Positions 1,470-57,382 of a stretch of 64,000 nucleotides of DNA are shown here, piece after piece. Position 1 is the first letter of the stretch, and every line of letters starts with the position of its first letter. Origin of the DNA: Nannocystis sp. GTDB taxonomy: Bacteria > Myxococcota_A > Polyangia > Nannocystales > Nannocystaceae. Under the pieces are notes generated by a model. It was not told the DNA's origin. It made no database searches and saw only the letters and a program-made list of their open reading frames with translations. The stretch is from the NCBI RefSeq assembly GCF_016717175.1, contig NZ_JADKFZ010000004.1, one strand, 5' to 3'. A program made the translations under genes and the position numbers.

Positions 1470-4400
1470 ATGAAGCCGTCGGACGCAGATCTCGGCGATA
1501 CGACGGGTGTGCCCGAGTCGCCGGGCGTGAAGGCCACGCGATCGTCGGGGCCGCCGCTGCACACCTCGGGCGCGTCGATCGATCCGCTGGCGATGACCGG
1601 CACGAGCTCGGGTCAGGCGACGGCGCGGGTGGGTCGGCCGGGCTTCGACGTCGACGCCGAGCTGGCGCGCGCGCAGCTCGAGACGCGGCTCTACGGGGCC
1701 GGGCGCGGCGAGGGCGGGCCGCGGATCGGGAAGTATCAGATCCTCGATCACCTCGGGCGCGGCGGGATGGGCTCGGTGTACACGGTCTACAACCCGGACC
1801 TCGATCGCAAGAGCGTGATCAAGCTGGTCCGGCCCGATCGATCGAGCCCGGACAGCCGGCGGCGGCTGCTGCGGGAGGCCCGACTGACGGCGACGCTGTC
1901 GCATCCGAACGTGGTCCAGATCCACGACTCGGGCGAGTACCTCGACGAGATCTACGTGGTGATGGAGTTCATCGCCGGGGTCGACCTCGACGCGTGGCGG
2001 CGGCAAGGGCCGCACGCGTGGCCGGAGGTGCTGGCGGTGTATCGCCAGGCGGGGCTCGGGCTGGCGGCCGCGCACGCGCAGGGGGTCGTGCACCGCGACT
2101 TCACGCCGCGCAACGCGATGCTCGGCGAGGATGGGCGGGTGCGGGTCCTCGACTTCGGGCTGGCGCACGCGCGGCGCGATGCGGGCGAGGTGATCGACGG
2201 TGCGCCGGGGTCTGGCGGACCACGGCCCGCTGCGGTGGCGGTGAGCGACGCGATGTCGGAGCCGGGGTCGGGGGACAGCTTGACGGCGACGGGGGCGATC
2301 GTCGGCACGCCGCGCTACATGTCGCCCGAGCAGTTGCGGAGCGTGCCGACCGACGGGCGCAGCGATCAGTTCAGCTTCTGCGTCGCGCTGTGGGAGGCGC
2401 TGCTCGGGCACCTGCCGTTCATGGGCGCCGATCTGTTCGAGTACAACGAGGCGGCGCTGGCCGGGGACATCCGGCCGCCGGAGGATCTGCGGGGGGTGCC
2501 GCGGCGGGTGTTGAAGGCGCTGCGGCGCGGGCTGGCGCCGCGGGCGGACGATCGCTTCGCGGACATGCACGCGCTGCTGGCGGAGCTCGACGTGCGGCCG
2601 CTGCGGCCGTGGATCGGGCTCGCGGGGGTGGCGGGGGCGCTGGCGCTGGTCGGGCTGTGGTTCCTCGCCCTGCCGGCGACGCCAGTGTCGCCGCGCGAGC
2701 AGTGTGCGAGCGAGTTGGCGGACGAGCTGCCGGTGACGTGGTCGGCGCTGCCCGGGCCGATCGCGGGGCGACTGGGGGAGTTCGCGGACCGCTGGCGGGC
2801 GGCGCGGGTCGAGCTGTGCGCGGCGGGTGTGGCGGGCGGGCTGCCGGCGCCGGCGCTGCGGCGCGGGCTGCGTTGCCTGGAGAAGCAGCGGGCGGTGTTC
2901 GTGGGGCTGGTCGATCGGGTGACGGCCGGCGATGCGCTCGAGCTCGACCTCGGGGCGCTGCCGGACAGCGATCGGGTGGCGGCGTGCACGGATCCGCTGC
3001 GCCTCGCCGACGGGGCCGCGCCGCCGTCGCCCGCGGCGCGCGAGGCGGTGAGCCGGGTCGAGGCGGACCTGGCCCGCGCCGAGACGGCGCTGATCCTCGG
3101 GCGCTACGCCGAGAGTGAGGCGATCGCCGCGAGCGCGGTGCGGCGGGTCCGGGAGATCGGTCATGCGCCGACGCTGGCGGCGGCGCTGTACCAGCTGGCC
3201 CGCGCCGAGACCTACGGGCCGAACGCGGACGCGGCCGAGGCGACGTTGCGCGAGGCGGCGGGGCTGGCCGAGCGGCACGACCTGCACGACCTCGCGGCGG
3301 ACATCTATCTGCGCCTGGTGCGGGTGGCGATGGCCCACGGGCAGCGCAGCGCCGACGGCAGCGTGTGGTTCGCGGTCCTCGGCTACAAGCTGGCGCGGCT
3401 CGACGAGCGTCGCGGTCGGCGCTGGGCGGAGGGGCTCGAGTACCTCGGGGCGATCGCCCTCGACGCGCGTGAGCTGGCGACCGCCGAGAGTCTGTTCGAG
3501 CGGGGCGCGGCGGCCGAGGAGGGGGCCGGGCCGCTGCGTCGCGGCCTGGTCGAGCTGCGGCTCGGGCGGGTGCAGCGGCTGCGTGGCGATGCGGCGGGGG
3601 CGGCCGGGCGCTTCGCGCGGGGGCTCGCGCTGGCGGAGGAGGAGCTCGGGCCGGAGCACCCGCAGCTGGTGCAGTTCCTGGTCAACCTCGGCGAGGTGCA
3701 GCTCGAGCTGCGCGAGCTGGAGGCGGCGGAGGCGACGATCGGGCGCGGGCTGGCGATCTCTACGGGCGGGGCGGGCGGGGCGGGGCGCGGCGTGTACCGG
3801 CCGCAGCTGCTGCTCGCGGCGGCGCAGGTCGCCGAGCTGCGGGGCGACATGGCGGGCGCGGGGGCGCTGGCGCGGCAGGCCCGGGCCTTGCTGCGCGACC
3901 GGGCCCTGCCGGCCGATGTCCGCAGCTACCGCGGGGCGGTGCTCGACCTGGTGGCCCGGGCCGCGTTCGCGGCGGGCGACGCGACGGCGGCGCTGGACGC
4001 CTACAGCGAGCTGCTCGCGGTGCCGGAGGGGCACCTGTCCCGAGAGGCAGCTCGCTTGCTGATCGCGTACCGCAACGCGGCCGGGCTGGCGGTGACGCGC
4101 GAGCAGCCGGCGCTGGCGCTGCGCTTCGTGGCCGCGGCGGTGCCCCTGCTGGGCGAGCCGGGGCTGGCGGAGGCGGCCGGCGAGGCGCTGCGGGTCGATC
4201 TGGCGGCCCGCGAGGGGGAGGCCTTGCTGGCCCTGGGGCGGCCGGCGGCGGCGGTCCTGGTCGCCGAGCGCGCGCTCGAGCGCTGGGACCCGCAGGGCCG
4301 GCGGGAGGACGCCTCCACCGCCGACCTGCACCTGCTGTGCTTCGAGGCGCTGAAGCAGCGGGCGCCGACGCAGGCGCTGCCGCACGCGCGGGCGGCCCTG

Positions 4401-8796: not shown

Positions 8797-9330
8797 ATGG
8801 CGAGGTCGGTGCATATTCTGTCGTTGCTGGACGACAGCGACATCGAGTGGTTGGTGCAGGTCGGGCTGCGCCTGAGCGTGCCGCCGGTGGCTCCGCTGGT
8901 GGAGGAGGGGCTGCGCACGCCGTTTCTCTACATCATTCTTTCGGGGGCCTTTCTCGTGACGCAGAGCGCGACGGGGGCGACGGAGCGGTCGCTGTCGGTG
9001 ATCCAGCGCGGGGAGCTGGTCGGGGAGCTGTCGTATCTCGACGCGCGGCCGCCGTCGGCGACGGTGCGGGCGGCCCGGGCCTCGCAGGTGCTGGCGGTGG
9101 CGCGCTCGGAGGTCGCGCGCAGGCTGCAGACGGACGTCGGGTTCGCGGCCCGCTTCTACCGGGCGCTGGGGATCACGGTGGCGATGCGGCTGCGGGCCCT
9201 GACGCGCGGCGAGCCGGAGGACGAGCCGGACCTCGAGCAGCTCGGGCTGGTGACGGTGGACGAGCGGCGCTTCGAGGCGATCATGCGCCGGCTGGAGGGG
9301 CTCCCAGGCGACGCAGACGCAGCGAGTTGA
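8797..9330 (+). CDS. cyclic-nucleotide-binding domain protein (no DNA-binding domain)
   Basis: [11 protein letters not shown]...RSATVRA is a cNMP-binding beta-barrel signature. 177 aa with no C-terminal HTH. Confidence 0.8.
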
Positions 9331-11818
9331 GCACGACGGTGAGGCTGCTGAGGGCCATCGCCAGGGCGGCGAGGGCGGGGTGGAGCGCGCGCAGGAAGCC
9401 CGGGGCGGCGGCGATCGGGTAGAGGGCGCCGGCGGCCACCGGGATCAGGACGAGGTTGTAGATCGAGGCCCACAGCAGGTTCTGGCGGACCACGGCGAGG
9501 GTGCGGCGCGACAGCTCCAGGGCCTCGGGCAGGCCGCGGAGGTCGCTGCGCATGAGGGTGAGGTCGGCGGCGTGGATCGCGACCTCGGCGCCGCTGCCCA
9601 TGGCGACGCCGAGGTCGGCCTGGGCCAGGGCGGGGCCGTCGTTGATGCCGTCGCCGACCATGCCGACCGGGCCGTCCCGCTGGAGCGTGACGATCGCGGC
9701 GGCCTTGTCGGCCGGGAGCACGCCGGCGATCACGTCGGCGGCGGGGATGCCGGCCTGGGCGGCGATGGCGATGGCGACCTGGCGGTGGTCGCCGGTCAGC
9801 ATGAGCACGCGCAGGCCGGCGCGGCGCAGGGTGGCGACGGCCTCGGCGGCCTCGGGGCGCAGGGCGTCGGCCAGGGCGAGCAGGCCGAGCAGGGCGCCGT
9901 CGCGGGCCAGCCAGACGAGGGTCTGCGGGGCCTGCAGGGCGGCGGCGGGGAGGGCGAGGAGGGCGGGTGTCGCTTGGGACAGGTGGGTGGGCGCGGGTGA
10001 GGGTGTCTCTTGGGACAGGTCGATGGTGGGCGCGGGGGAGGGTGGTTCTTGGGGCAGGTCGGTGGTGGATGTCCCGGCGGACAGGTCGGGTGTCGCTTGG
10101 GACAGGTGGGTGGCGGCTGTCCCGGGGGACAGGTTTGATGTCTCTTGGGACAGGTTGATCGTGGCGCTGGCGGTGGCTGTCCCGGCGGACAGGTCGGCGG
10201 CGAGGGCGGTGAGGGCGGTGGTGTCGACGTGGTTGCTGGTGAGCCAGCGTTCGCTGCCGATGAGGAGGTCGTGGCCGTCGACGCGGGTGCGCAGGCCGTG
10301 GCCGCCGACGGCGCGGAGGCTGTCGCTGGCGGGGAGCGCCTGGCCGGCGTCGCGGGCGGCGCTGACGATCGCGCGGGCGAGCGGGTGCTCGCTGCGCTGC
10401 TCGGCGGCGGCGGCGAGGCGGAGGAGCTCGCGCGGGTCGACGCCGGGGGCGGGCGCGAGGGCGCTGAGCGTGGGGCGGCCGCGGGTGAGGGTGCCGGTCT
10501 TGTCGAGGACGAGGGTGCGCAGGGCCTGGGCTCGCTCGAGCGCGGCCATGTTCTTGAACAGGACGCCGCGGCGGGCGGCGGCGCCGGTGCCGACGACGAT
10601 CGCGGTCGGGGTGGCGAGGCCGAGGGCGCAGGGGCAGGCGATCACGAGGACGGCGACGGCGCGCAGGAGGGCCGCGCCGGCGCCCTGGTCGGCGAGCAGC
10701 CACCACAGCGTGAAGGTGAGGCCGGCGAGGGCGAGGACGACGGGGACGAACACGGCGGCGACGCGGTCGACCAGGCGCTGCACGGGGGCCTTGCTGGCCT
10801 GGGCGGCGCGGACGAGGCGGACGATCTGGGCCAGGGCCGTGGCTGCGCCGACGCGGGTGGCCTCGATCTCGAGGGCGCCGTCGCCGTTGACGGTGGCGCC
10901 GGTGACGGGGTCGCCGGTGGTCTTGCCGACGGGGCGGCTCTCGCCGGTCAGCATGCTCTCGTCGACCTCGGAGGCGCCGCTGCGGACGACGCCGTCGACC
11001 GGGATCGCGGCGCCAGGGGCGACCAACACGGTGTCGCGGACCCGGACCTCTGCGGCGGGGATCTCGAGCTCGTGGCCGTCGCGGCGGACCCGGGCGGTGG
11101 CGGGGCGGAGCGCGAGCAGGGCCCGGATCGCGGCGCCGGCCTGGCCGCGGGCGCGGGTCTCGAGCAGGCGGCCGACGGCGACGAGGGTGACGATCGCGGC
11201 GGCGGTCTCGAAGTGGACGTGGTGGCCGAGAGCGTGGCTGCCGAGGGACTCGGCGACGACCACCGGGACGCTGGCGAGGAAGGCCACGCCGGCGCCGAGG
11301 CTGATCAGGACGTCCATGGTGGCGGCGCGGGCCTTGAGCGCGTGCCAGGCCCCGCGCAGGTGCGGCGCGCCGGTGTAGGCGAGGACCGGCAGGGCGAGCG
11401 CCAGCATGAGCCACAGGAGCCACGGGGCGGCCGTCCAGGCGCCGAGCAGGTCGAAGTCGCGGCCCATGCCGAGGACCATCAGCGGGGCGGTGCAGGCGAT
11501 CCCGACGAGGACGCGGCGGCGCTGACTGGCGAGCTCGGCGGCGCGGGCCAGCAGCTCGGCATCGTCGCCGCCCTCGCTGCCCGCGATCACGCTGTAGCCG
11601 GCGGCCTCGACGGCGGCGACCAGCTCACCGCGAGTGACTGTGCCGGGGGTCGCCAGGTGCACGCGGGCGGTCTCACTGGCGAAGTTGACGGCGGCCGCGG
11701 CGACGCCGGGGACGCTGGTGAGCGCGCGTTCGACGGTGTTCGCACAGTTGGCGCAGCGCAGCCCGGCGATCGCCAGCTCGAACTCGGGGTCGTCGGCGGC
11801 GGGCACGGAGCCGAGCAT
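9281..11818 (-). CDS. copA: heavy-metal (Cu+-type) P1B-type ATPase with N-terminal HMA domain
   Basis: [19 protein letters not shown], transmembrane CPC (IACPCALG), [15 protein letters not shown]. Carries an in-frame repeat insertion at 9960-10200. Confidence 0.8.
9960..10200. repeat. in-frame tandem repeat array (~24-27 bp units carrying GGGACAGGT/ACCTGTCCC) inside the P-type ATPase nucleotide-binding region
   Basis: gggtgtcgcttgggacaggtgggtgg...gggtgtctcttgggacaggtcgatgg... encodes (DLSAGT/HLSQAT/NLSQET...) repeats between LLIGSERWL and the [10 protein letters not shown] segment. Confidence 0.8.
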
Positions 11819-18729: not shown

Positions 18730-19142
18730 TCAGGGGCACACGCAGCGGACCTTGTCGCCGCCGTTCGGGACCTTGCCGGTCTGGCCGCAGTCGAGGTCGT
18801 AGCGGGCGCCGGTACAGCGTTGGGCGCCCTTCCCGTCGGGGCTGCAGGCGGAGTACATCTCGACGCAGCCGTCGCCGAGGCCGGGGCGCGGGTGGAGGTC
18901 GCGGTGGCCGGCGAGCGGAGGGGGCGGGGCGGCGGGCGGTGGAGTTGGTGGGGTTTCGGCGAGCGGGGGTGGGGGTGTCGGAGGCGTCGGTGGGGTTTCG
19001 GCGATTGGGGGTGGTGGTGTCGGAGGCGTCGGGGGGTGGGTGCGGTCGGGGGTGTCGGTGGCGTCGGGGCGGCGGGCTTGGTCGGCTCGGTCGGGGCGGT
19101 GCAGGCGAGGAGCAGGGCGCCGAGGAGGAGGAGGCGGTGCAT
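18730..19142 (-). pseudogene. small Pro-rich lipoprotein with 6-Cys C-terminal domain, split by an apparent 1-nt frameshift in a C6 run
   Basis: Signal MHRLLLLGALLLAC in one frame from ATG 19142. The C-terminal GCVEMYSACSPDGKGAQRCTGARYDLDCGQTGKVPNGGDKVRCVCP lies in the +1 frame ending at 18730. The frames join if the run acccaCCCCCCgacg has one extra C. The DNA carries (TPPTPP) repeats. Confidence 0.5.
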
Positions 19143-19190
19143 GGTGGGACGATAACCTGGGTGGGAGCGCGGGCGGTGGGGCACGGGCCG

Positions 19191-19272
19191 GGGTGGGGGG
19201 GGGGGGGGGGGGGGGGGGCGGGGGGGGGGGGCGGGGGGGGGGGGGGGCCCGGGGGGGGGGGGGGGGGGGGGT
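19191..19272. repeat. ~80-nt near-pure poly-G (poly-C on the minus strand) homopolymeric tract
   Basis: gggtgggggg gggggggggg ggggggggcg gggggggggg gcgggggggg gggggggccc ggggggggggggggggggggg read directly. Lies 50-130 nt upstream of the minus-strand lipoprotein start at 19142. Confidence 0.95.
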
Positions 19273-19618
19273 GGGGCCCTGGGGCCCGGGGGCCCGGGGG
19301 CGCCGCCCCGCGCCGCGGGGGGCCCTCCGGCGCGCGACGCCTCCGCTAAAGGCAAGGCGGTCGGCGTCGCCGAGAGCCGGCCCCACCCCGGCCCTGAATG
19401 GGGTGACGTCGCTGCGCGGTATGTAGCAGCGAATGCGACGGGTTGCACTCGATATGTCGCATTGCTGTGAGCCTCGAAGCGCTCACCGTTCAATGCACTC
19501 AAATGGGTCCGGGGCAGTCCTGCGGAGCGTCCGTGTCGGGCGCGCACATTGCTGTCGGGCCCATGTCGCCGCAACAATCGTCGTGGCTGCAGAGGATGCA
19601 ACTCCATTCGAAGCAGGC

Positions 19619-19832
19619 CGTGATGCGTCCAATGTGAATGAGTTGTGGTCGCCGTGTGGCACCTTTCGTTCCTGTCCGAAGAGGCAGGTTGCGAGTCTCA
19701 GGCCGGGGCGGGCCTCGGCGACGCCGTGATGCATGCAATGTGAATGAGTTGTGGTCGCCGTGTGGCACCTTTCGTTCCTGTCCGAAGAGGCAGGTTACGA
19801 GTCTCAGGGCCGGGGCGGGTCCGGCCTCGGCA
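19619..19832. repeat. 107-bp tandem duplication (2 copies) of a lower-GC element
   Basis: gtgatgcgtccaatgtgaatgagttgtggtcgccgtgtggcacctttcgttcctgtccgaagaggcaggttgcgagtctcaggccggggcggg... repeats from 19726 with ~6 mismatches. Copy 2 ends in the hairpin GGCCGGggcgggtCCGGCC. Confidence 0.9.
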
Positions 19833-20013
19833 GGGCCGACCGTACCGTCCTTTAGCGGAGGCTTCGCTTGCCGGAGGGCCGACGGGGGGGTCGACCGAGT
19901 CAAGGGGCGCCGTGGAGAACGAAGTTCTCCAAAGGCGAACCCGCCCTGTCTGAGGCCCTGACCCCCGTCGGACATCCGGCTTCTCGAGGATACGCGCGCG
20001 CCCGCCGGACCCG

Positions 20014-20170
20014 CCCCGGTCCGTGCCACGATACTCGCGGAGTCCTGCTGTGATAGCGAGGATACTCGCGGAGTCCTGCTGTGATAGCCCGGTCCGTGCC
20101 ACGATACTCGCGGAGTCCTGCTGTGATAGGCCGGTCCGTGCCTTGATATTCGCGGACCTGCGATAGCGAG
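20014..20170. repeat. 41-bp tandem repeat (~3.5 copies), lower-GC
   Basis: cccggtccgtgccacgatactcgcggagtcctgctgtgatag repeated, last copy degenerate. Immediately 3' of the cbiX stop on the minus strand. Confidence 0.85.
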
Positions 20171-20180
20171 GGGTCGGCCT

Positions 20181-25589: not shown

Positions 25590-26451
25590 GTGCGCCGCCT
25601 CGCCTGTCTCTGGCTCGCCTCCTCGCTGATCGCGGTGGGCGGGCCGGCGCGCCCGCTGCACGCGGCGCCGGTCAGCGAGCGCGCGGCCGATGTGCCGCTC
25701 GCGGTCGAGGGACCTGCGCCAAAGGACAGGTCGGGAGAGGCTGGCGCGGAGGACAGGTCGGCTGGCTCCGGGGTCGGGGTCAGCTGGCCCGGAGGACAGG
25801 TCGGGAGAGGCTGGCCCGGAGGACAGGTCGGGGTCGGCTGGCCCGGAGGACAGGTCGGCTGGCTCTGGGGACAGGTCGACGCCGCGGTCGGCGGCCGAGG
25901 GGATGCCCGCGGCGCCGCGGGTGCCGGCGCCGACGGCTGCGATCAAGGATGGGGGCCCAGAGCTGGTCACGGTGGCGGTCGGGCTCGGGCCCTCGGCGCC
26001 GGGCTCGAAGGCGGAGACGGCGGTGGTCGACGCGCTCGAGCGCGCCGCCCGGGCCTCGCAGGCGCCGCCGACGCTGGTTCGCCGCCTGCGGGCCGGGGCG
26101 GGCGAGGGGCGGGCGATCTGCCGCGAGCGTCGCGACGACCTGGTGCTGCTGCTCGAGTACATGCCCGATCGACCCGAGCCGGTGTTGGTGCCCCGGGACT
26201 GCCGCCTCGACCGTGAGCTGGCGCTCCGGGGGAAGGAGGCCGCAGGTGAGCCGGCCCTCATCGGCGTACTGTGGGAGGAACATCGGGCGCTCGTCCGCGG
26301 CGGGGCCCGCGAGCGCAAGGTGAGGATCAGCCGCAAGGTGAAGACGGGCCTCATCGCTGGCGGGGCGATCGTGGTCGTCGGGCTGGCGATCGTGCTGGTT
26401 GTGGTCAACAGCTTGCGCCGCGAGACGGTCGTGCTCACAGTGGGGCCATGA
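25590..26451 (+). pseudogene. secreted repeat protein with C-terminal TM helix; apparent 1-nt frameshift in a G4 run within the repeat array
   Basis: Signal (V)RRLACLWLASSLIAVGGPARPLHA in the frame starting 25590. The downstream part (PEDRSGEAGPEDRSGSAGPEDRSAGS...VLVPRDCRLDRE...IAGGAIVVVGLAIVLVVV) is in the next frame (track ORF 25690..26451). The frames join if tccGGGGtcgggg loses one G. The stop overlaps the next gene's ATG (ATGA). Confidence 0.5.
25720..25875. repeat. 27-bp tandem repeat array with AGGACAGGTCG core (5-6 copies)
   Basis: ...ggaggacaggtcgggagaggctggcccggaggacaggtcggggtcggctggcccggaggacaggtcggctggctctggggacaggtcgac... Units are multiples of 3 except for one 43-bp unit. Confidence 0.85.
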
Positions 26452-29623: not shown

Positions 29624-31381
29624 TCAGACGCGGGCGTCGGTCTCGAACAGGCGCTCGAGCTCGTCGGCGGACTGCTTGGCGTGGGCGATCAGGGCCTGCT
29701 CGTTGTCGCGGAGGGTGAATTGCTCGGCGAGGACGCGCTCGTCCCAGCGGCGGAAGGCGAGGGTGAGCTCGTGGGCGTCGGCGCGGCCGAGCTCGGTGAG
29801 TGCCTGCTCGGCGAGCTCGAGGCTGGACACGAGGGTCTCGCGGATCACCGTGTCGGCGCCGGCGGCGACGAGCGCGTGGTTGTGCTGGCGGTTGCGGCTG
29901 CGGGCGAGGATCCGCAGCTGGGGGAAGTGCTGGCGCGCGTGCTGGACGATGTGGAGCGCGGCCTCGGTGTCGTCGACGGCGACGATCAGGAGGCGGGCCT
30001 TGTGGGCGCCGGCGGCGTGGAGCAGGTCGAGGCGGGCGGCGTCGCCGTAGAAGATCTTGCTGCCGTAGCGGCGCACGAAGTCGATCTGGGTCGGGCTGAC
30101 CTCGAGCGCGGTGAAGCCGACGCGGGCCATGCGGAGCACGCGGGCGACGATCTGACCGAAGCGGCCGAAGCCGGCGATGATGACCCCGTGGGCCTCGTCG
30201 ATGGTGTCGAAGGGGCGCGGATCTGCGGCTGTCTCTCGGGACAGGCGGTCGCGCAGCAGGAAGAGCAGCGGGGTGGTGACCATCGACAGGGTGACGACCA
30301 GGATCAGCATGTCGGCGGTCGGGCGGTCGAACACGCCGGCCGCGATCGCGGCGCTGCAGACGACGAAGGCGAACTCACCGCCCTGGGACAGGGCGATAGC
30401 GAGGTCGAGGGCGCCGTGGCGCGGCAGCTTGAAGACCAGGCGGCCGAGCACGAGCACGGCGAGCAGCTTGACGGCGACCAGCGCGAGGACCAGGCCGGCG
30501 AGGGTGAGCGGCTGCTCGGCGAGCAGGCCGAGGCGGGCCGACATGCCGACGGCGACGAAGAAGAGGCCGAGCAGGAGGCCCTTGAAGGGGTCGATGTCGG
30601 CCTCTAGCTGGTGGCGGTAGGGCGAGTCGGCGAGCAGCACGCCGGCCAGGAAGGCGCCGAGGGCCATCGACAGGCCGACCTGTTCGACGAGGATCGCGGT
30701 GGCGAGGACGATGAGGAGGGCGAGCGCGGCGGAGAGCTCGCGGATGCGGGTGCCGGCGACGACGCGGAACAGCGGGCCGAGCAGGTAGCGGCCGGCGAAC
30801 ACGAGGCCGACGATGACGCCGAGGGCGAGGCCGACCTGGGCGAGGCCGCTGCGGCCGGCGGCCTCGGCGGCGCGGGCCGTGCCGAGCAGGGGGAGGACGG
30901 CGAGGAGCGGGCTGGCGGCGACGTCCTGGAACAGGAGGATGCCGAACGCGGCGTGGCCGTGAGGGGTGGCGAGGCTGTGGCGGTCGGCGAGGATCTGCAG
31001 GACGATCGCGGTGGACGAGAGGGCGAGGGCGAGGCCGGTGACGATCGCGGCGCTCGGGGGCAGGCCGAGCAGCCAGGCGAGCGGCGCGAGCAGGACGGCG
31101 CTGACGGCCACCTGCAGGCCGCCGTACTCGAACACCTGGGCGCGCAGCTGCCACAGGCGGGCGGGCTGCAGCTCGAGGCCGACGAGGAACATGAGCAGGA
31201 CGACGCCGAGCTCGGCGAAGTGGAGGGTCGAGTCGACCTCGTGGATGAAGCCGAAGCCGGAGGGGCCGATCGCCACGCCCGCGGCGAGGTAGCCGAGCAC
31301 GGCGCCGAGGCCGAGGCGCTTGAACACCGGGACCGCGACGACGGCAGCGGCGAGGAAGATCGTGGCCTGGGCGAGCTGCAT
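29624..31381 (-). CDS. kefB: CPA2-family K+/H+ antiporter with C-terminal TrkA-N (KTN) domain (KefB/KefC-type)
   Basis: MQLAQATIFLAAAVVAVPVFKRLGLGAVLGYLAAGVAIGPSGFGF matches the KefB N-terminus. Na/H-exchanger TM core. C-terminus has GVIIAGFGRFGQIVARVL Rossmann. Start taken at the downstream ATG (31379-31381) of a duplicated start region. Confidence 0.8.
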   Translation of the reverse strand: MQLAQATIFLAAAVVAVPVFKRLGLGAVLGYLAAGVAIGPSGFGFIHEVDSTLHFAELGVVLLMFLVGLELQPARLWQLRAQVFEYGGLQVAVSAVLLAPLAWLLGLPPSAAIVTGLALALSSTAIVLQILADRHSLATPHGHAAFGILLFQDVAASPLLAVLPLLGTARAAEAAGRSGLAQVGLALGVIVGLVFAGRYLLGPLFRVVAGTRIRELSAALALLIVLATAILVEQVGLSMALGAFLAGVLLADSPYRHQLEADIDPFKGLLLGLFFVAVGMSARLGLLAEQPLTLAGLVLALVAVKLLAVLVLGRLVFKLPRHGALDLAIALSQGGEFAFVVCSAAIAAGVFDRPTADMLILVVTLSMVTTPLLFLLRDRLSRETAADPRPFDTIDEAHGVIIAGFGRFGQIVARVLRMARVGFTALEVSPTQIDFVRRYGSKIFYGDAARLDLLHAAGAHKARLLIVAVDDTEAALHIVQHARQHFPQLRILARSRNRQHNHALVAAGADTVIRETLVSSLELAEQALTELGRADAHELTLAFRRWDERVLAEQFTLRDNEQALIAHAKQSADELERLFETDARV

Positions 31382-34908: not shown

Positions 34909-36327
34909 ATGGCAACCGTGGTCCAGCTCCCGCGACTCAGCGACACGATGGAAGAGGGCGTGATCGCCAAGTGGCGGATCAAGGTCGGCGACAAGGTCAA
35001 GCGCGGCCAGGTCATCGCCGAGATCGAGACCGACAAGGCGACGATGGAGTTCGAGTCATTCGACTCGGGCGTCGTGCTCAAGCTGATAGCGACGGAGGGC
35101 GAGACGCTGCCGCTCGGGGCGCCGATCGCCGTGCTCGGGCAGGCGGGCGAGAGCCCGGACGGGGCGAGCGCGGGTGCCGGCGCGAGTGTTGGCGCGAGCG
35201 AACCGGCAGCGGCGACGCCGGCGGCTGAGGCGAGCAAGCCGGCAGCGGCGGCTGAGGCGAGCAAGCCGGCAGCGGCGGTGGCCGAGGCGGCGGCGAGCAG
35301 TCCCGAAGGCCAGGTAGCGAAGGACATGTCCAAAAAGCCAGCCGGGGACGGCGCGCGGGTGCCGGCGTCGCCGCTGGCGCGGCGTCTGGCGCGGGAGCAC
35401 GACCTCGAGCTCGGCGAGATCAGCGGCAGCGGCCCGCACGGGCGGGTCGTGAAGGCGGACGTCGACCAGGCGATCGCGGCGGCTGGCAAGGCGCCAGCGA
35501 CCGCTGCGGCTGCGGGGACGAGCGCTGCTGCGGCGCCGGTTGCTGCGGGGACGCGCTCGGGGGGAGCGACGGCCGCGGCCGCCGTGAAGCCCGTGGGTGC
35601 GGCGACGGCCGAGGTCGACGCCGACGGGCGGCCCTACGTGTCGCGCCCGGCGCGGACGATCAAGCTGAGCCAGATGCGCAAGACGATCGTCAAGCGCATG
35701 GGCCAGAGCAAGCGCGAGGCGCCGCACATCTACCTCACGACGGCGATCCGCATGGACCGGGCGCTGGCGGTGCGGGCCGAGATCAACGCGGCGGTCGACG
35801 GGACCAAGGTCAGCGTCAACGACCTCATCGTGCTGGCCTGCGCCAAGGCGCTGCGCAAGCACCCGAAGGTGAACGCCAACTACACCGAGGCCGGCATCGT
35901 CGAGCACGGCGACATCCACGTCGGCGTGGCGGTCGCGCTGGACGACGGGCTGGTGGTGCCGGTGGTCCGCTTCGCCGAGCAGAAGTCGATCACGGCGATC
36001 TCGCGCGAGACGCGGGACCTCGGCCTGCGGGCCAAGGCCAAGGAGCTGCGCCCGGAGGAGATGGCGGGGAGCACCTTCACGATCAGCAACCTCGGGATGC
36101 TCGGCGTGGAGAGCTTCATGGCGGTGATCAACCCGGGCGAGGGGGCGATCCTCGCGGTCGGGGCGACGGCCGACGAGGCGGTGGTCGAGGACGGGGCCGT
36201 GGTGATCCGCAAGGTCATGCGCGTGACGATGTGCTCCGACCACCGGGCCTTCGATGGGGCCGACAGCGCCCGCTTCCTGCAGACGCTGAAGGCGCTGCTC
36301 GAGGCGCCGCTGGCGATGTTCAGCTGA
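34909..36327 (+). CDS. pdhC: dihydrolipoamide acetyltransferase (E2) of the pyruvate dehydrogenase complex
   Basis: Lipoyl domain IETDKATMEF, Ala/Pro-rich linkers, E3-binding PLARRLAREHDLEL, catalytic DHRAFDGA. Confidence 0.9.
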   Translation: MATVVQLPRLSDTMEEGVIAKWRIKVGDKVKRGQVIAEIETDKATMEFESFDSGVVLKLIATEGETLPLGAPIAVLGQAGESPDGASAGAGASVGASEPAAATPAAEASKPAAAAEASKPAAAVAEAAASSPEGQVAKDMSKKPAGDGARVPASPLARRLAREHDLELGEISGSGPHGRVVKADVDQAIAAAGKAPATAAAAGTSAAAAPVAAGTRSGGATAAAAVKPVGAATAEVDADGRPYVSRPARTIKLSQMRKTIVKRMGQSKREAPHIYLTTAIRMDRALAVRAEINAAVDGTKVSVNDLIVLACAKALRKHPKVNANYTEAGIVEHGDIHVGVAVALDDGLVVPVVRFAEQKSITAISRETRDLGLRAKAKELRPEEMAGSTFTISNLGMLGVESFMAVINPGEGAILAVGATADEAVVEDGAVVIRKVMRVTMCSDHRAFDGADSARFLQTLKALLEAPLAMFS

Positions 36328-44163: not shown

Positions 44164-44706
44164 TCAGGGCGCCGGCTGGCCGTCGCGGCGGGCCTCGCTG
44201 AGCAGGCGCTCGAGCAGCTGGATCTGCTGCTGTTGCATCTGCACGAGCTCGGACCACTGGCGCTCGCGCAGGAGGTCGAGCTTCTCGTGGAGGTAGCGGA
44301 TCTCGAGCTCGGCCTTGAGGTTGACCTCGTAGTCGTGGGCGGCGTCGGCCCGGTCGCGGGCGGCCTGGCGGTTCTGCGACATGAGGATGACCGGGGCCTG
44401 GAGGGCGGCGAGCATCGACAGGGCGAGGTTTAGCAGGATGAAGGGGAAGGGGTCGAAGGCGCCGCGGCCGAGCGAGACGTTGCAGATGATCCACACGGCG
44501 AGCACGCCGAGGCAGATCAGGATGAAGGTCCACGAGCCGCCGAAGCTGGCGATGCGGTCGGCGATGCGCTCGCCGAAGGTGCGCTGGTCGTCGAGGGCCT
44601 GCTGAACGTCGCGGCTGATCGCCGTTCCGGCGCGCAAGGCCTCGACGACGCGGAGCTCCTGGGCGTCGAGCTCACGGGAGTCGCTGGGCGGTTCGAGGGG
44701 CTGCAT
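44164..44706 (-). CDS. DUF1003-family membrane protein
   Basis: GGSWTFILICLGVLAVWIICN...PFPFILLNLALSMLAALQAPVILMSQNRQ is the characteristic DUF1003 core. Confidence 0.7.
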   Translation of the reverse strand: MQPLEPPSDSRELDAQELRVVEALRAGTAISRDVQQALDDQRTFGERIADRIASFGGSWTFILICLGVLAVWIICNVSLGRGAFDPFPFILLNLALSMLAALQAPVILMSQNRQAARDRADAAHDYEVNLKAELEIRYLHEKLDLLRERQWSELVQMQQQQIQLLERLLSEARRDGQPAP

Positions 44707-44738
44707 GGCCTGGCGAGCCTACACCGGCGGTCTGCGGT

Positions 44739-45735
44739 TCAGGAGGTGGCGATCACGGCGATGCCCAGGACGATGAGGTAGGGGACGAAGGGGAGCAGGC
44801 CGACGCGCACGAGCAGGGTCATGAGGGCGCGCAGGGTCAGGCTGCCGACCGCGAAGCTGGCGGCGAAGCCGAGGGCGTAGCTGGTCGGGGCGATGCTCGT
44901 GGCGCTGCCGTGCTGCCACAGGTCGAGCGACTCCTTGAGCGAGGCGCCGAGGATCGCGGGGATCGCGAGCAGGAAGGAGAAGCGGGCCGCGGGCAGGCGA
45001 CCGAGGCCGAGGGCCATCGCGGCGGCCATGGTCGAGCCGCTGCGCGAGATGCCGGGCAGGATCGCTACCAGCTGGGCGAGGCCGATGACGAGGCCCTGCC
45101 ACGGGCGCGGGGCCTCGAGGCTGGCGACGCTGTCGTCGCGGCGGTGCGAGAAGGCGAGCAGGGCGGCGGTGATGAGGAAGCCGCAGCCGATCCAGCGGGT
45201 GCTGGTCTCGGCGGCGAGGACGATCGCCATGGTCGTGTCGCTGAGCGCGAGGGCCAGCGGGAGGGTGCCGAGGATGAGCGCGAGCAGGAGGGCGCGGGCG
45301 GTGTTCAGGGGCGGGCCGACGCGCGCGGGGACCAGGTCGCGCGAGGGGCCAGGTGGTGGGCCAGGGTTAGCACCTGGCCGGGCCCGCGGCGGGGGGGGGC
45401 CAGGGGCCTGGCCGTGAACCTGGCCCATTGGACAGGTCGTCGGCGAGCGCGAGGGGGTCGCCGACGGGGGCTGTGGGGGTCCCGGTGTGGTGGACGATCG
45501 CGACCTGGCGCGGCTGGAACACGGCGCGGGCGAGGGCGCCGAGGTCGTGGCGGTAGAACAGCAGGACGGCGACCAGGGTGCCGGCGTGGACGACGATGTT
45601 GAAGGTGTGGCCGCCGCTGGCCGCGTCGACGCCGAGCCAGGTCTGGGCCAGGGCGAGGTGGCCCGAGGAGGAGATCGGGAGGAACTCGGCGACGCCCTGG
45701 AGGGCGCCGAGGGCGAGGGCCAGCAGCGGGCCCAT
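44739..45735 (-). CDS. uppP: undecaprenyl-diphosphatase (UppP/BacA), interrupted by a 1-nt frameshift at a C9 (G9 on plus) homopolymer at 45391-45399
   Basis: N-terminal half (MGPLLALALGALQGVAEFLPISSSGHL...) is in the frame of track ORF 45367.. The C-terminal half (...LLLALILGTLPLALALSD...PGISRSGSTMAAAMALG...) is in ORF 44739..45428. Removing one C from the C9 run joins them. Confidence 0.75.
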
Positions 45736-45746
45736 GCCGGGGTCGC

Positions 45747-47597
45747 TCACGCATCCTCCGCGGGGGCCTCGTTGGCGGCGGAGCTGTCCTCCGGGACAGC
45801 CGCGGACGCGTGCTCGGCGGAGCTGTCCTCCGGGACAGCCGCGGACGCGTGCTCGGCGGAGCTGTCCTCCGGGACAGCCGCGCGCGCGCGCTCGACGACG
45901 CCGCGCTCCCACAGCTGCTCGTCGATCGCGCGCATGAGGGCCGCGGTGCTGCGGCGCTCGTTGGCGCTGATGAAGTAGGTGTGGCGGTCGGCGTCGGCGC
46001 GGCGCTGGTTGAGCTCGTCGGGACCCAGGCGGTCGATCTTGTTGTAGACCCACAGGCGGGGCACGGCGCCGGCACCGATCTCGCCGAGGATCGCCTCGAC
46101 GGTGGCGCGCTGCTGGTCCTGGTCGGGGTCGCTGGCGTCGACGACGACGAGCAGGAGGTCGGCCTCGGCGACCTCCTCGAGGGTGGCGGAGAAGGCCTGG
46201 ACGAGCGCGGGGGGGAGGTCGCGGATGAAGCCGACGGTGTCGAGGAGGACGACCTCGTAGTCCTTGGGGAAGCGGATCCTGCGGACGCTGGGGTCGAGGG
46301 TGGCGAACAGCTTGTCCTCGGCGACGACGGCGCTGTCGGTGACGGTGTTGAGCAGGCTGCTCTTGCCGGCGTTGGTGTAGCCGACGATCGCGACCACGGG
46401 GACGCCGGTGCGCCGGCGCAGGGCTCGACGCTGGTCGCGGCGCTGCTTGAGCGCGAGCAGGCGGCGCTCGAGGTCGTGGATGCGCTCCTTGGCGCGGCGG
46501 CGGTCGATCTCGAGTTTGGTCTCGCCGGGGCCGCGACCACCGATGCCGCCGGCGAGCCGCGACATGGCGGTGCCGTGGCCGATCATCCGCGGCAGGAGGT
46601 AGCGCAGCTGGGCCAGCTCGACCTGCAGCTTGCCGTCGGCCGAGGTGGCGTGCTGGGCGAAGATGTCGAGGATGAGGGTGGTGCGGTCGATGACCTTGAG
46701 GTCGGTGCGCTCGCCGATCTCGCGGGCCTGCGAGGGGGTGAGGTCGGGGTCGCAGATCAGGAGCTCGACGTCCTGGGCGAGGGCCCGCACGAGCACGTCG
46801 CGCAGCTTGCCCTGGCCGAAGAAGGTGCGCGGGTCGGGGCCGGGGCGGCGCTGGGTGGCGAGGTCGACTAAGTGGAGGCCGTCGGTGCGGCACAGCTCGC
46901 GCAGCTCCTGCTCGCGGGCGTGCAGCTCGGGGCCCTCGCCCTGGTGGATCATGAGGGCCATGGCGCGGGTGCCCTGCGACTCGGCGCGCGCGCCCGCGGT
47001 GGCGGCGACGAGGCCGGCCTCGAGGTCGCGGATGAAGCCGAGGAAGTCGGAGGGCATGTCCGCGGCGGGCCGCATGCCGGTGGTGTGGCCGGGGTCGTCG
47101 TCGTCGCGGGCGAGCACGCCGAGCGGGACGCGCGGGAAGCCGCGCACGACGAAGATGTCCTTTGAGCCAGGTTGTGGCGGGGCCAGGCTGGCGAGGTCGA
47201 TCTGGACGCCGGCGGGGCCGCGGTGGATCGCGGCGAGGAGGTCGAGGCGCAGCTTGGCGAGGTCGGCGAGCTCCTCGCGGGTCGGCGGGTCGGGGACCAG
47301 GTGGGTGAGGACCAGCCGGACGCCGCGCAGGCGGCCGCCCTGGCCGCGCACGCGGGTGAACTCCGGGAGGGCGAGGCTGTGGGCGTCGCCGAGGATGACG
47401 CGCTGGACGCGGCCGCGGCGGTCGATGAAGAGGCCGAGCTGGCGGTTGAGCTGGTGCGAGAGCTCGAGCAGGTCGCGCGCGAGCACGGCCGAGATGACGC
47501 TCGTCGGCGGGACCTGGCGCGCGCCGAGCCGCTGCAGCGCGCGGGCCTGGCTGCTCTTGAGGTTCGCCGTGTCGCCGTGGACGATCGGGTCGCTCAC
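45747..47597 (-). CDS. hflX: GTPase HflX with C-terminal repeat extension
   Basis: G-domain VAIVGYTNAGKSSLLN...DTVGF...NKID. N-terminal HflX domain. GTG start overlaps the upstream gene's stop. C-terminal (AAVPEDSSAEHAS)x3 encoded by the 45778-45895 repeat. Confidence 0.85.
   Translation of the reverse strand: MSDPIVHGDTANLKSSQARALQRLGARQVPPTSVISAVLARDLLELSHQLNRQLGLFIDRRGRVQRVILGDAHSLALPEFTRVRGQGGRLRGVRLVLTHLVPDPPTREELADLAKLRLDLLAAIHRGPAGVQIDLASLAPPQPGSKDIFVVRGFPRVPLGVLARDDDDPGHTTGMRPAADMPSDFLGFIRDLEAGLVAATAGARAESQGTRAMALMIHQGEGPELHAREQELRELCRTDGLHLVDLATQRRPGPDPRTFFGQGKLRDVLVRALAQDVELLICDPDLTPSQAREIGERTDLKVIDRTTLILDIFAQHATSADGKLQVELAQLRYLLPRMIGHGTAMSRLAGGIGGRGPGETKLEIDRRRAKERIHDLERRLLALKQRRDQRRALRRRTGVPVVAIVGYTNAGKSSLLNTVTDSAVVAEDKLFATLDPSVRRIRFPKDYEVVLLDTVGFIRDLPPALVQAFSATLEEVAEADLLLVVVDASDPDQDQQRATVEAILGEIGAGAVPRLWVYNKIDRLGPDELNQRRADADRHTYFISANERRSTAALMRAIDEQLWERGVVERARAAVPEDSSAEHASAAVPEDSSAEHASAAVPEDSSAANEAPAEDA
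45778..45895. repeat. 39-bp in-frame tandem repeat x3 at the 3' end of hflX, containing the near-palindrome CTGTCCTCCGGGACAG
   Basis: ggcggagctgtcctccgggacagccgcggacgcgtgctc repeated three times. Confidence 0.85.
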
Positions 47598-54839: not shown

Positions 54840-54905
54840 GGCTGTCCGAGGGGACAGGTTGCGGCCGGCGTGCTTGATGTGAGGCTGTCCGAGCGGACAG
54901 GTCAG
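54825..54905. repeat. ~45-bp tandem duplication (2 copies) carrying GTCCGAG(G/C)GGACAGGT, between convergent genes
   Basis: cctgatgtgaggctgtccgaggggacaggttgcggccggcgtgcttgatgtgaggctgtccgagcggacaggtcagcgg read directly. Confidence 0.7.
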
Positions 54906-57232: not shown

Positions 57233-57382
57233 GGCGCGGGGGACAGGTGCGAGGAGACAGGTGCGAAGGGACAGGTTGGAAGGGACAGGTGGGATGGCCG
57301 CGGGGACAGGTGCGAAGGGACAGGTGGGGATGGCCGAAGGGACAGGTGGGAGGGGACCGGTGGGGATGGCCGAAGGGACAGC
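57233..57382. repeat. intergenic tandem array of ~14-25-bp units built on GGGACAGGTG (about 9 copies)
   Basis: ggggacaggtgcgaggagacaggtgcgaagggacaggttggaagggacaggtgggatggccgcggggacaggtgcgaagggacaggtggggatggccgaagggacaggtgggaggggaccggtggggatggccgaagggacagctcaggtgg. Lies directly upstream of the ATG at 57232, between the two M16 genes. Confidence 0.9.

Follow-up and report, generated by a model that had tools for sequence, protein, structure and literature searches.

Three frame breaks in GC-extreme tandem repeats of a Nannocystis metagenome-assembled genome as probable local consensus errors

We analysed a stretch of 64,000 nucleotides (the window) from a metagenome-assembled genome (MAG) of Nannocystis sp., in which three genes are broken in their reading frames: a small Cys-rich lipoprotein gene (18730..19142, minus strand), the gene of a secreted or membrane-anchored repeat protein (25590..26451, plus strand) and uppP (44739..45750, minus strand). 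The 229-aa open reading frame at 44739..45428 (minus strand) is 100% identical to MBK9754179.1, a Nannocystis sp. MAG protein annotated as undecaprenyl-diphosphate phosphatase on a 915,480-bp contig, and further proteins of the window have adjacent accessions under the locus-tag prefix IPO88. The G+C content of the window is 74%, and its GC skew stays near +0.18 over the whole length. This strong skew is natural to the lineage, as short-read contigs of relatives, in opposite orientation, have a skew of -0.18 to -0.19. The asymmetry of homopolymers of at least 6 nt in the window (30 runs of G, 0 of C) was accordingly rejected as a sign of artefact. The original prediction described three single-nucleotide frameshifts at homopolymer runs. 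All three breaks are present in the sequence as given; a single nucleotide is involved only in the lipoprotein gene, the other two lesions being a 5-nt deletion and a scrambled patch.

The uppP gene ends with a stop codon at 44739-44741. An ATG is found at 45735, and GTG at 45750 is likely the true start because relatives begin with MSDPGMGPLL. Translation, the Pfam BacA match and alignment with intact relatives delimit an N-terminal part (45409..45750, minus strand), which contains the conserved EFLPISSSGH region together with copy one of a PLALADDLS..GPG loop repeat. The C-terminal part (44739..45375, minus strand), the one deposited as the 229-aa MBK9754179.1, is fully conserved including PGxSRSG and the last transmembrane helix. 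Between the two lies a scrambled patch free of A and T (45376..45408, minus strand); it holds the G9 run that had been predicted, at 45391-45399. The N-terminal frame stops at TAA 45367-45369 and the remainder is in the +1 frame, open from 45749, so that a single uninterrupted uppP reading frame is absent in the window.

Outside the patch, the gene looks healthy. Both halves match BacA/UppP (PF02673), the joined product doing so in two stretches with E=3.7e-58 and 197.7 bits (cut-off 33.4), and every one of the 6613 homologs found carries the same domain. At the invariant alignment columns, including E17-H26 and P227-G233, the window has the residue of all 14 homologs compared. The dN/dS ratio against L004, a Logan short-read contig whose UppP is 93% identical, is within the range of intact neighbouring genes; with few counts and GC3 close to saturation, the ratio shows only that uppP is no worse than they are. 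Apart from the patch, uppP has no sign of decay.

The patch itself was defined by DNA alignment with L004 and the JGI contig L001. Intact Nannocystis UppP relatives are 313-347 aa long because of a lineage-specific Pro-rich loop; the UppP of Enhygromyxa (275 aa) is without it. In the nearest relatives, the loop contains two tandem copies of PLALADDLS(D/N)GPG, encoded by a repeat unit of 34-45 nt. The position of the patch corresponds to their second ALADDLSDGPG copy, where the window reads GCCCCCCCCCGCCGCGGGCCCGGCC. At the DNA level, the second copy of the relatives is CGCGCTCGCCGACGACCTGTCCGATGGGCCAGGT and the window has GCCCCCCCCCG-----CCGCGGGCCCGGCCAGGT, with flanks that match well. Compared with L004, the patch has about 12 substitutions, all A and T removed and a net loss of 5 nt, and within an 8-kb alignment of the two every other net coding indel is a multiple of three. 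Against the protein of a second Nannocystis MAG (the sister, discussed below) the loss would be about 14 nt, as judged from the peptide.

It had been claimed that in each gene the two halves join perfectly once a homopolymer changes by one base. Deleting one C does close the uppP frame, but it yields WPPPPRAR instead of the HTGPALADDLSDG of the closest relative; a correction restricted to homopolymers would thus lead to wrong proteins. The sister UppP (MBK7826557.1, 94% identical) has the loop GSRPGPHTGPALADDLSDGPGANPG, to be compared with GSRPGPWPPPPRARPGANPG in the window after the one-base repair. The uppP defect is therefore a scrambled patch rather than a one-base slip, and it is this patch that breaks the frame. 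The patch is unique in the window, where no second copy was found that could act as a gene-conversion donor. An exact-pattern scan of JGI metagenome contigs for the uppP loop of this strain gave no match.

The lipoprotein consists of a signal peptide (LLLAC), a Pro/Thr-rich linker encoded by a 42-nt tandem repeat and a Cys-rich domain; its relatives are single open reading frames of 120-136 aa. The frameshift site is a G6 run (C6 on the coding strand) at 19031..19036, minus strand, about 40 nt away from the position near 18990 originally given for the C6. Here a T (A on the coding strand) is missing from CGTCGGTGGGGT. The repeat unit ACCCCACCG has become ACCCCCCG (in longer context, ACCCCACCGACGCC has become ACCCCCCGACGCC), GG and GGGG being merged to G6, and the adjacent unit at 18985-18996 retains the T and reads ACCCCACCG. 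With the base restored, the product has 137 aa. The sister protein MBK7826535.1 is of equal length and identical to it at 136 of 137 residues, including those across the repair site. The break is thus a true single-base deletion merging two runs.

A G/C tract of 122 nt (19199..19320) begins about 57 nt upstream of where lipoprotein translation starts; it includes G24, G12, G15 and G21 and has A or T only at 19272, 19280 and 19300. One stretch of this region free of A and T measures 77 nt (19195-19271). Two short-read relatives, L010 and L008, have about 20 nt (AGGCGCGCGCACCCAGCCGG) in place of the tract, and match the window on both flanks or on the flank next to the gene. Homopolymers longer than 10 nt are rare in bacterial genomes (PMC9262707). 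The tract is probably corrupted as well, which would make it the fourth such anomaly in the window. In the same region, the segment 19199-20008 is inverted with respect to L008, the closest short-read relative, and the more distant L010 has the arrangement of the window.

The repeat protein is composed of a signal peptide, an array of 27-nt tandem repeats of EDRSGEAGP type, a conserved domain and, at the C-terminus, a membrane anchor. Its relatives are single open reading frames of 253-280 aa, and the MEGAHIT contig L007, from a relative about 95% identical, encodes it in one open frame. One unit of the array measures 43 nt, which is not a multiple of three. The break lies inside the array at 25764..25789 (plus strand), where GACAG is absent after 25772 in GGCTCCGGG^GTCGGGG. 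G4 runs (25770-25773 and 25776-25779) do adjoin the site, as in the proposed slip in a G4 run near 25775, but the lesion is the loss of GACAG. We built two repairs, one by removing a single G (286 aa) and the other by adding GACAG after 25772 (288 aa). In exact-sequence look-ups, the 288-aa version is identical to the sister protein MBK7826541.1, and the 286-aa version has no match in the protein collection. This difference identifies the lesion as a 5-nt deletion, not a 1-nt slip.

The repeats of the window include a palindromic family. Palindromes of the type CTG(T/G)CC-N4-GGACA(G/T)GTC form in-frame arrays in the uppP loop, the repeat protein, the C-terminus of HflX and the HAD domain of a P-type ATPase; the arrays occur in genes of either orientation and almost always on the same chromosomal strand. 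The core TGTCC-N4-GGACA occurs 15 times at exact spacing against about 0.2 expected (16 times if spacers of 2-6 nt are allowed), in about 10 independent places. The 10-mer GGACAGGTCG occurs 13 times against 0.3 expected, and of GGACAGGT the plus strand has 29 copies, the minus strand 3. Copies are found in coding tandem repeats of either gene orientation as well as in intergenic arrays, and short-read relatives share some of them at orthologous positions. Both the uppP lesion and that of the repeat protein fall in degenerate copies. A literature search on repeats or GC skew in Nannocystis found nothing relevant.

Elsewhere in the window the reading frames are in order. About 45 other genes are full length. 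Segmentation of frames by GC3, which scores the lipoprotein and repeat-protein regions as non-coding, gives uppP as the sole frame change without a stop codon. A Pfam scan matched 33 of 45 other predicted proteins, and the domains of larger enzymes and transporters are covered nearly end to end (Transp_cyt_pur 5-438/440, Aminotran_1_2 3-361/361, Na_H_Exchanger 3-374/375); some matches are partial, though no split domain was seen among the 45. By the GC3 frame plot and Pfam coverage, the window thus has no excess of broken genes beyond the three. It also contains about 45 tandem arrays, the majority of them in frame. The uppP G9 is the only run of at least 8 nt outside the tract at 19.2 kb, and 25 other runs of G6-G7 come without any other frame break, contrary to the notion of an error systematic over homopolymers. 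An Rfam scan of the window returned two tRNAs only. Because this census shows no other broken gene and mostly in-frame arrays, the assembly is accurate in ordinary sequence, and its defects are confined to a few GC-extreme repeats.

The most informative comparator is the sister MAG (proteins MBK78265xx, on a 418,025-bp contig), which we compared at the protein level and by exact-sequence look-ups. Its gene order is that of the window. Coq4, BioB, the E1-beta subunit of PDH, an MA-type peptidase and a cNMP-binding protein are identical in both; the other proteins differ by a few residues, and about half of those compared are 100% identical. At the sites of all three window breaks the sister is intact (for uppP, the loop peptide only is known). 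Its uppP is instead frame-shifted in the last transmembrane helix, where LPFVPYL, invariant in all homologs, has become LPSSPTCRPGPRRDRHLLNRRPPV (LPSSPTCRPG...), a place at which the window is intact; four other residues of the protein differ as well. By these protein differences the sister MAG is a close comparator, neither the same strain nor a replicate. Two assemblies nearly identical at the protein level in this region thus each carry private frame breaks at different positions.

In short-read assemblies of relatives (L004-L006, L001-L002, L007 and L008) the three genes are single open frames. The same is true of close aligned orthologs generally, and truncated hits, where traced, proved to be internal starts or partial calls. 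For two of the three window genes, the minimal repair gives an intact allele that is independently observed: exactly, over 288 aa, for the repeat protein, and at equal length with 136 of 137 residues for the lipoprotein.

The lesions thus exist, are private to the window assembly, and have repaired alleles in an independent, near-identical assembly. We have good confidence that the three frame breaks are local consensus errors of the MAG assembly, and the cause most likely lies in sequencing or polishing rather than in mutation. Consensus error is favoured because the lesions are private, because the sister gives the exact repair for two of them and is itself broken elsewhere in uppP, and because both the uppP patch and the 19199-19320 tract put G/C-only sequence where relatives have mixed sequence. 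The original prediction arrived at the same general explanation, an error of a long-read assembly. It stands as the best supported one, on different evidence (private lesions and repairs present in the sister), and fails in its detail of one-base homopolymer errors.

The probable course of events is as follows. The MAG was very probably built from error-prone long reads, as a 915,480-bp contig from a metagenome bin of 74% GC points to long reads, and we infer that the technology was Nanopore. All three lesions lie in extremely GC-rich tandem repeats encoding flexible linkers. Such repeats give a poor long-read consensus, and short reads map to them ambiguously or cover them thinly, so that polishing fails or even worsens the sequence. 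The other genes checked are full length and the uppP patch is the sole out-of-frame coding indel over 8 kb against L004, which fits a polished assembly with residual errors in hard regions. In the organism, the uppP, lipoprotein and repeat-protein genes are most likely intact. The likely true lipoprotein sequence would have a T restored (plus strand) after 19032 inside G6, CGTCGG^GGGGT; that of the repeat protein would have GACAG restored after 25772; and in uppP a normal second ALADDLSDGPG unit would replace 45376-45408.

From their accession ranges, we suspect that the window MAG and the sister MAG are part of a public activated-sludge Nanopore MAG set. That set was made by CANU followed by Racon, Medaka and then Racon with HiSeq X reads (PMC8012365). 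It has several Nannocystaceae bins, among them bins with paired depth values of about 9-12 and 12-17 (PMC8012365), in unlabelled columns that we read as Nanopore and Illumina coverage. Two more specific causes were rejected. Firstly, the boundaries of 500-nt Racon windows do not explain the lesions, whose spacings are not multiples of 500. Secondly, poly-G as a dark-cycle artefact of two-colour Illumina chemistry has no support if the reads are of HiSeq X, a four-colour platform.

Some observations count against an artefact. Neither the 5-nt deletion nor the roughly 30-nt patch with its many substitutions resembles the classic one-base homopolymer error, real slippage is naturally frequent in tandem repeats, and the copy number of these arrays varies among relatives, and the three products are all envelope proteins, a class favoured by real contingency loci. 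The breaks could then be real and very recent inactivating mutations, or dominant population variants, caused by slippage or recombination between repeat units, and the genes young pseudogenes. We consider this unlikely. All three sites do lie in tandem arrays that vary in copy number or unit structure among close relatives, and both the 5-nt deletion and the replacement of a unit are plausible outcomes of repeat instability. The uppP gene can be dispensable, as in E. coli, where bacA/uppP single mutants are viable and the PAP2-type phosphatases PgpB, YbjG and LpxT serve as a backup (the argument for an assembly error from essentiality of uppP is weak for the same reason), and its breakage in both sister MAGs could mean relaxed selection. 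Yet for real evolution the ratio of frameshifts to substitutions would be very high, with three private ones within 64 kb when about half of the compared proteins are entirely identical to those of the sister. The uppP gene keeps its invariant columns (14 homologs) and a dN/dS like that of intact neighbours. An A/T-free scramble is, moreover, hard to obtain by slippage, and it recurs in more extreme form in the non-coding 19199-19320 tract.

The palindromes allow a related idea, that the frame breaks are real products of hypermutable palindrome arrays, a repeat-driven contingency system that switches off envelope genes in a myxobacterium; we hold this to be quite improbable.

Slipped-strand phase variation would make the G9, G6 and G4 tracts contingency switches of envelope genes. 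Such switches are classically recognised by a tract like G9 within coding sequence, the three products all belong to the envelope, and the lipoprotein gene has a long poly-G tract in its promoter region. Conservation of the tracts is lacking, however. At the uppP site, relatives read CCCCCGCGCGC or CCCCCAGCCGC; at the lipoprotein site, those with the full repeat unit have ACCCCACCG, and the sister encodes TPPTPP. A conserved homopolymer with length polymorphism is absent at both sites in relatives and in the sister strain. In addition, the event near 25772 is a 5-nt deletion and not a change of tract length, and adding or removing one base in G9 leaves the conserved uppP peptide unrestored. 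Phase variation and recoding, both offered originally as alternatives, fail on conservation, since neither the tracts nor the frameshifts are conserved in relatives, and we regard the former as very improbable. Programmed ribosomal frameshifting, in which tRNA-Pro would slip by +1 on the uppP C9 and so connect the N- and C-terminal frames (+1 slippage is favoured at CCC-C) and analogous events would serve the other two genes, is extremely improbable: none of the close orthologs aligned is frameshifted at any of the three sites, each site requires a shift of its own with no signal in common, the uppP fusion is without the conserved repeat peptide, and the single-strand fold of the patch region is not significant (z = -1.76).

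Taken together, the frame breaks are most likely not real biology, and the case serves mainly as a warning. The public annotation of the MAG contains truncated proteins (a 229-aa "UppP", a 182-aa and a 42-aa fragment, the last found solely in a RefSeq WP_ entry). These are best taken for artefacts and give no grounds for recording gene loss, pseudogenes, phase variation or recoding in Nannocystis. Besides one-base homopolymer slips, residual errors of polished long-read MAGs can take the form of multi-base deletions and scrambled G/C-only patches, concentrated in GC-extreme tandem repeats. Real breaks would mean that one strain has lost UppP along with two envelope proteins, a finding of moderate interest.

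Among known phenomena, the closest are indel artefacts of Nanopore sequencing of the R9 era (PMC9262707, PMC8012365); fragmentation of gene calls by Nanopore consensus indels is well documented (PMC9262707). The likeness lies in breaks private to one contig of long-read scale, in their location at G/C runs and low-complexity repeats, in one one-base deletion that merges two G runs, and in split gene calls of which the depositor keeps only the distal open reading frames (229 aa and 182 aa). The window differs in having lesions of 5 nt and of about 30 nt (the latter with about 12 substitutions) and in that its ordinary G6-G7 runs are unaffected. Young pseudogenes formed by repeat-mediated deletion resemble it in small deletions within tandem repeats of otherwise intact, conserved genes. 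Here, however, three cases in 64 kb greatly exceed the number expected from the very low divergence between the proteins of the window and those of the sister, and the G/C-only scramble is without an obvious mutational origin. Finally, the contingency loci of Neisseria, Haemophilus and Campylobacter share with the window poly-G/C tracts inside or upstream of envelope genes, where a change of length would switch the frame. They differ from it in that the tracts of the window are absent from orthologs and from the sister, one of the three events is no length change, and no on/off pair differing only in tract length was seen.

The window is marked by a short, dispersed palindrome, TGTCC-N4-GGACA, which occurs 15 times at exact spacing, against about 0.2 occurrences expected, and 16 times when a spacer of 2-6 nt is allowed. 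Its half-site GGACAGGT is strongly biased in orientation, with 29 copies on the plus strand of the window versus 3 on the minus strand. Examples lie at 1004, 10070-10191, 14059, 22343, 40549, 45785-45876, 52138, 54843-54899, 56615 and 57967, and degenerate copies at 25785-25852, 45421 and 57295-57380. The palindrome is found both in coding tandem repeats, in genes of either orientation, and in intergenic arrays.

The gene of a heavy-metal P-type ATPase (9284-11818, minus strand) encodes, at 9952-10200, about 85 extra residues inserted in frame and composed of DLSQ/DLSAG-type tandem repeats whose 39-48-nt units contain the palindrome. The insertion falls within the HAD/hydrolase domain, which is matched by Pfam in two separate stretches. 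At the C-terminus of HflX, a 39-nt unit (AAVPEDSSAEHAS) is repeated three times (45776-45894), each copy holding the hairpin CTGTCC-TCC-GGGACAG, and the palindrome is present at the same position in five short-read contigs of relatives (L001, L002 and L004-L006). Finally, two M16-family peptidase genes are separated by DNA that holds, at 57240-57381, a tandem array with units of 14 and 36 nt (GGGACAGGTGCGAA / ...GGGGATGGC). In the EDRS repeats of the repeat-protein gene the rare codon AGG recurs, suggesting that a constraint acts on the DNA itself.

The lipoprotein and CbiX genes are separated by non-coding DNA with repeats (19617-19825 and 20015-20171): a tandem duplication of 106 nt, four tandem units of 42 nt (CCCGGTCCGTGCCACGATACTCGCGGAGTCCTGCTGTGATAG) and an inverted repeat with arms of 32 nt (19321-19352 / 19849-19880). 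A search of Rfam gave no match for the repeats at 19617-19825 and 20015-20171. In the same interval, imperfect inverted repeats with the core CCCCGG(C/T)CCGTGCC (19180-19198 and 20009-20027) bound a segment of about 810 bp (19199-20008), which lies in opposite orientation in the MEGAHIT contig of the closest relative (L008); a more distant relative (L010) shares the arrangement of the window. The segment could represent a misassembly, an inversion between strains or a switch that flips in front of the lipoprotein gene.

Directly upstream of the lipoprotein gene lies a tract of 122 nt (19199-19320) with only three A/T bases, all the others being G or C. It includes homopolymers G24, G12, G15 and G21, and its longest A/T-free run reaches 77 nt. 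In two short-read relatives this position is taken up by ordinary sequence of about 20 nt (AGGCGCGCGCACCCAGCCGG), and the tract is probably a corrupted patch of consensus. The sister MAG, a second assembly from a nearly identical strain, has a break of its own: its UppP (P0001, MBK7826557.1) is frameshifted in the invariant last helix (window equivalent ~44745-44800), and the resulting tail matches the out-of-frame translation of the window. At least two deletions together with substitutions are required to explain this, and the lesion is a second scrambled patch, in a different assembly from that of the window. Further assembly breaks may have split the sister genes for a KefB-like antiporter and PDH E2 (window counterparts 29627-31381 and 34909-36324); neither protein was found in the 90% identity clusters of window proteins, and the proteins flanking them are 100% identical between the sister MAG and the window.

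Beside uppP, two DUF3179 genes separate it from the DUF1003 gene in relatives (L004-L006, ~1905-3101); in the window a mere 32 nt lie between the two (44706-44739). GC skew is about +0.18 throughout the 64 kb and stays positive in both gene orientations (+0.14 and +0.23). Since the short-read contigs of relatives give the mirror value, the skew is a genuine, unusually strong strand asymmetry of the Nannocystis lineage.
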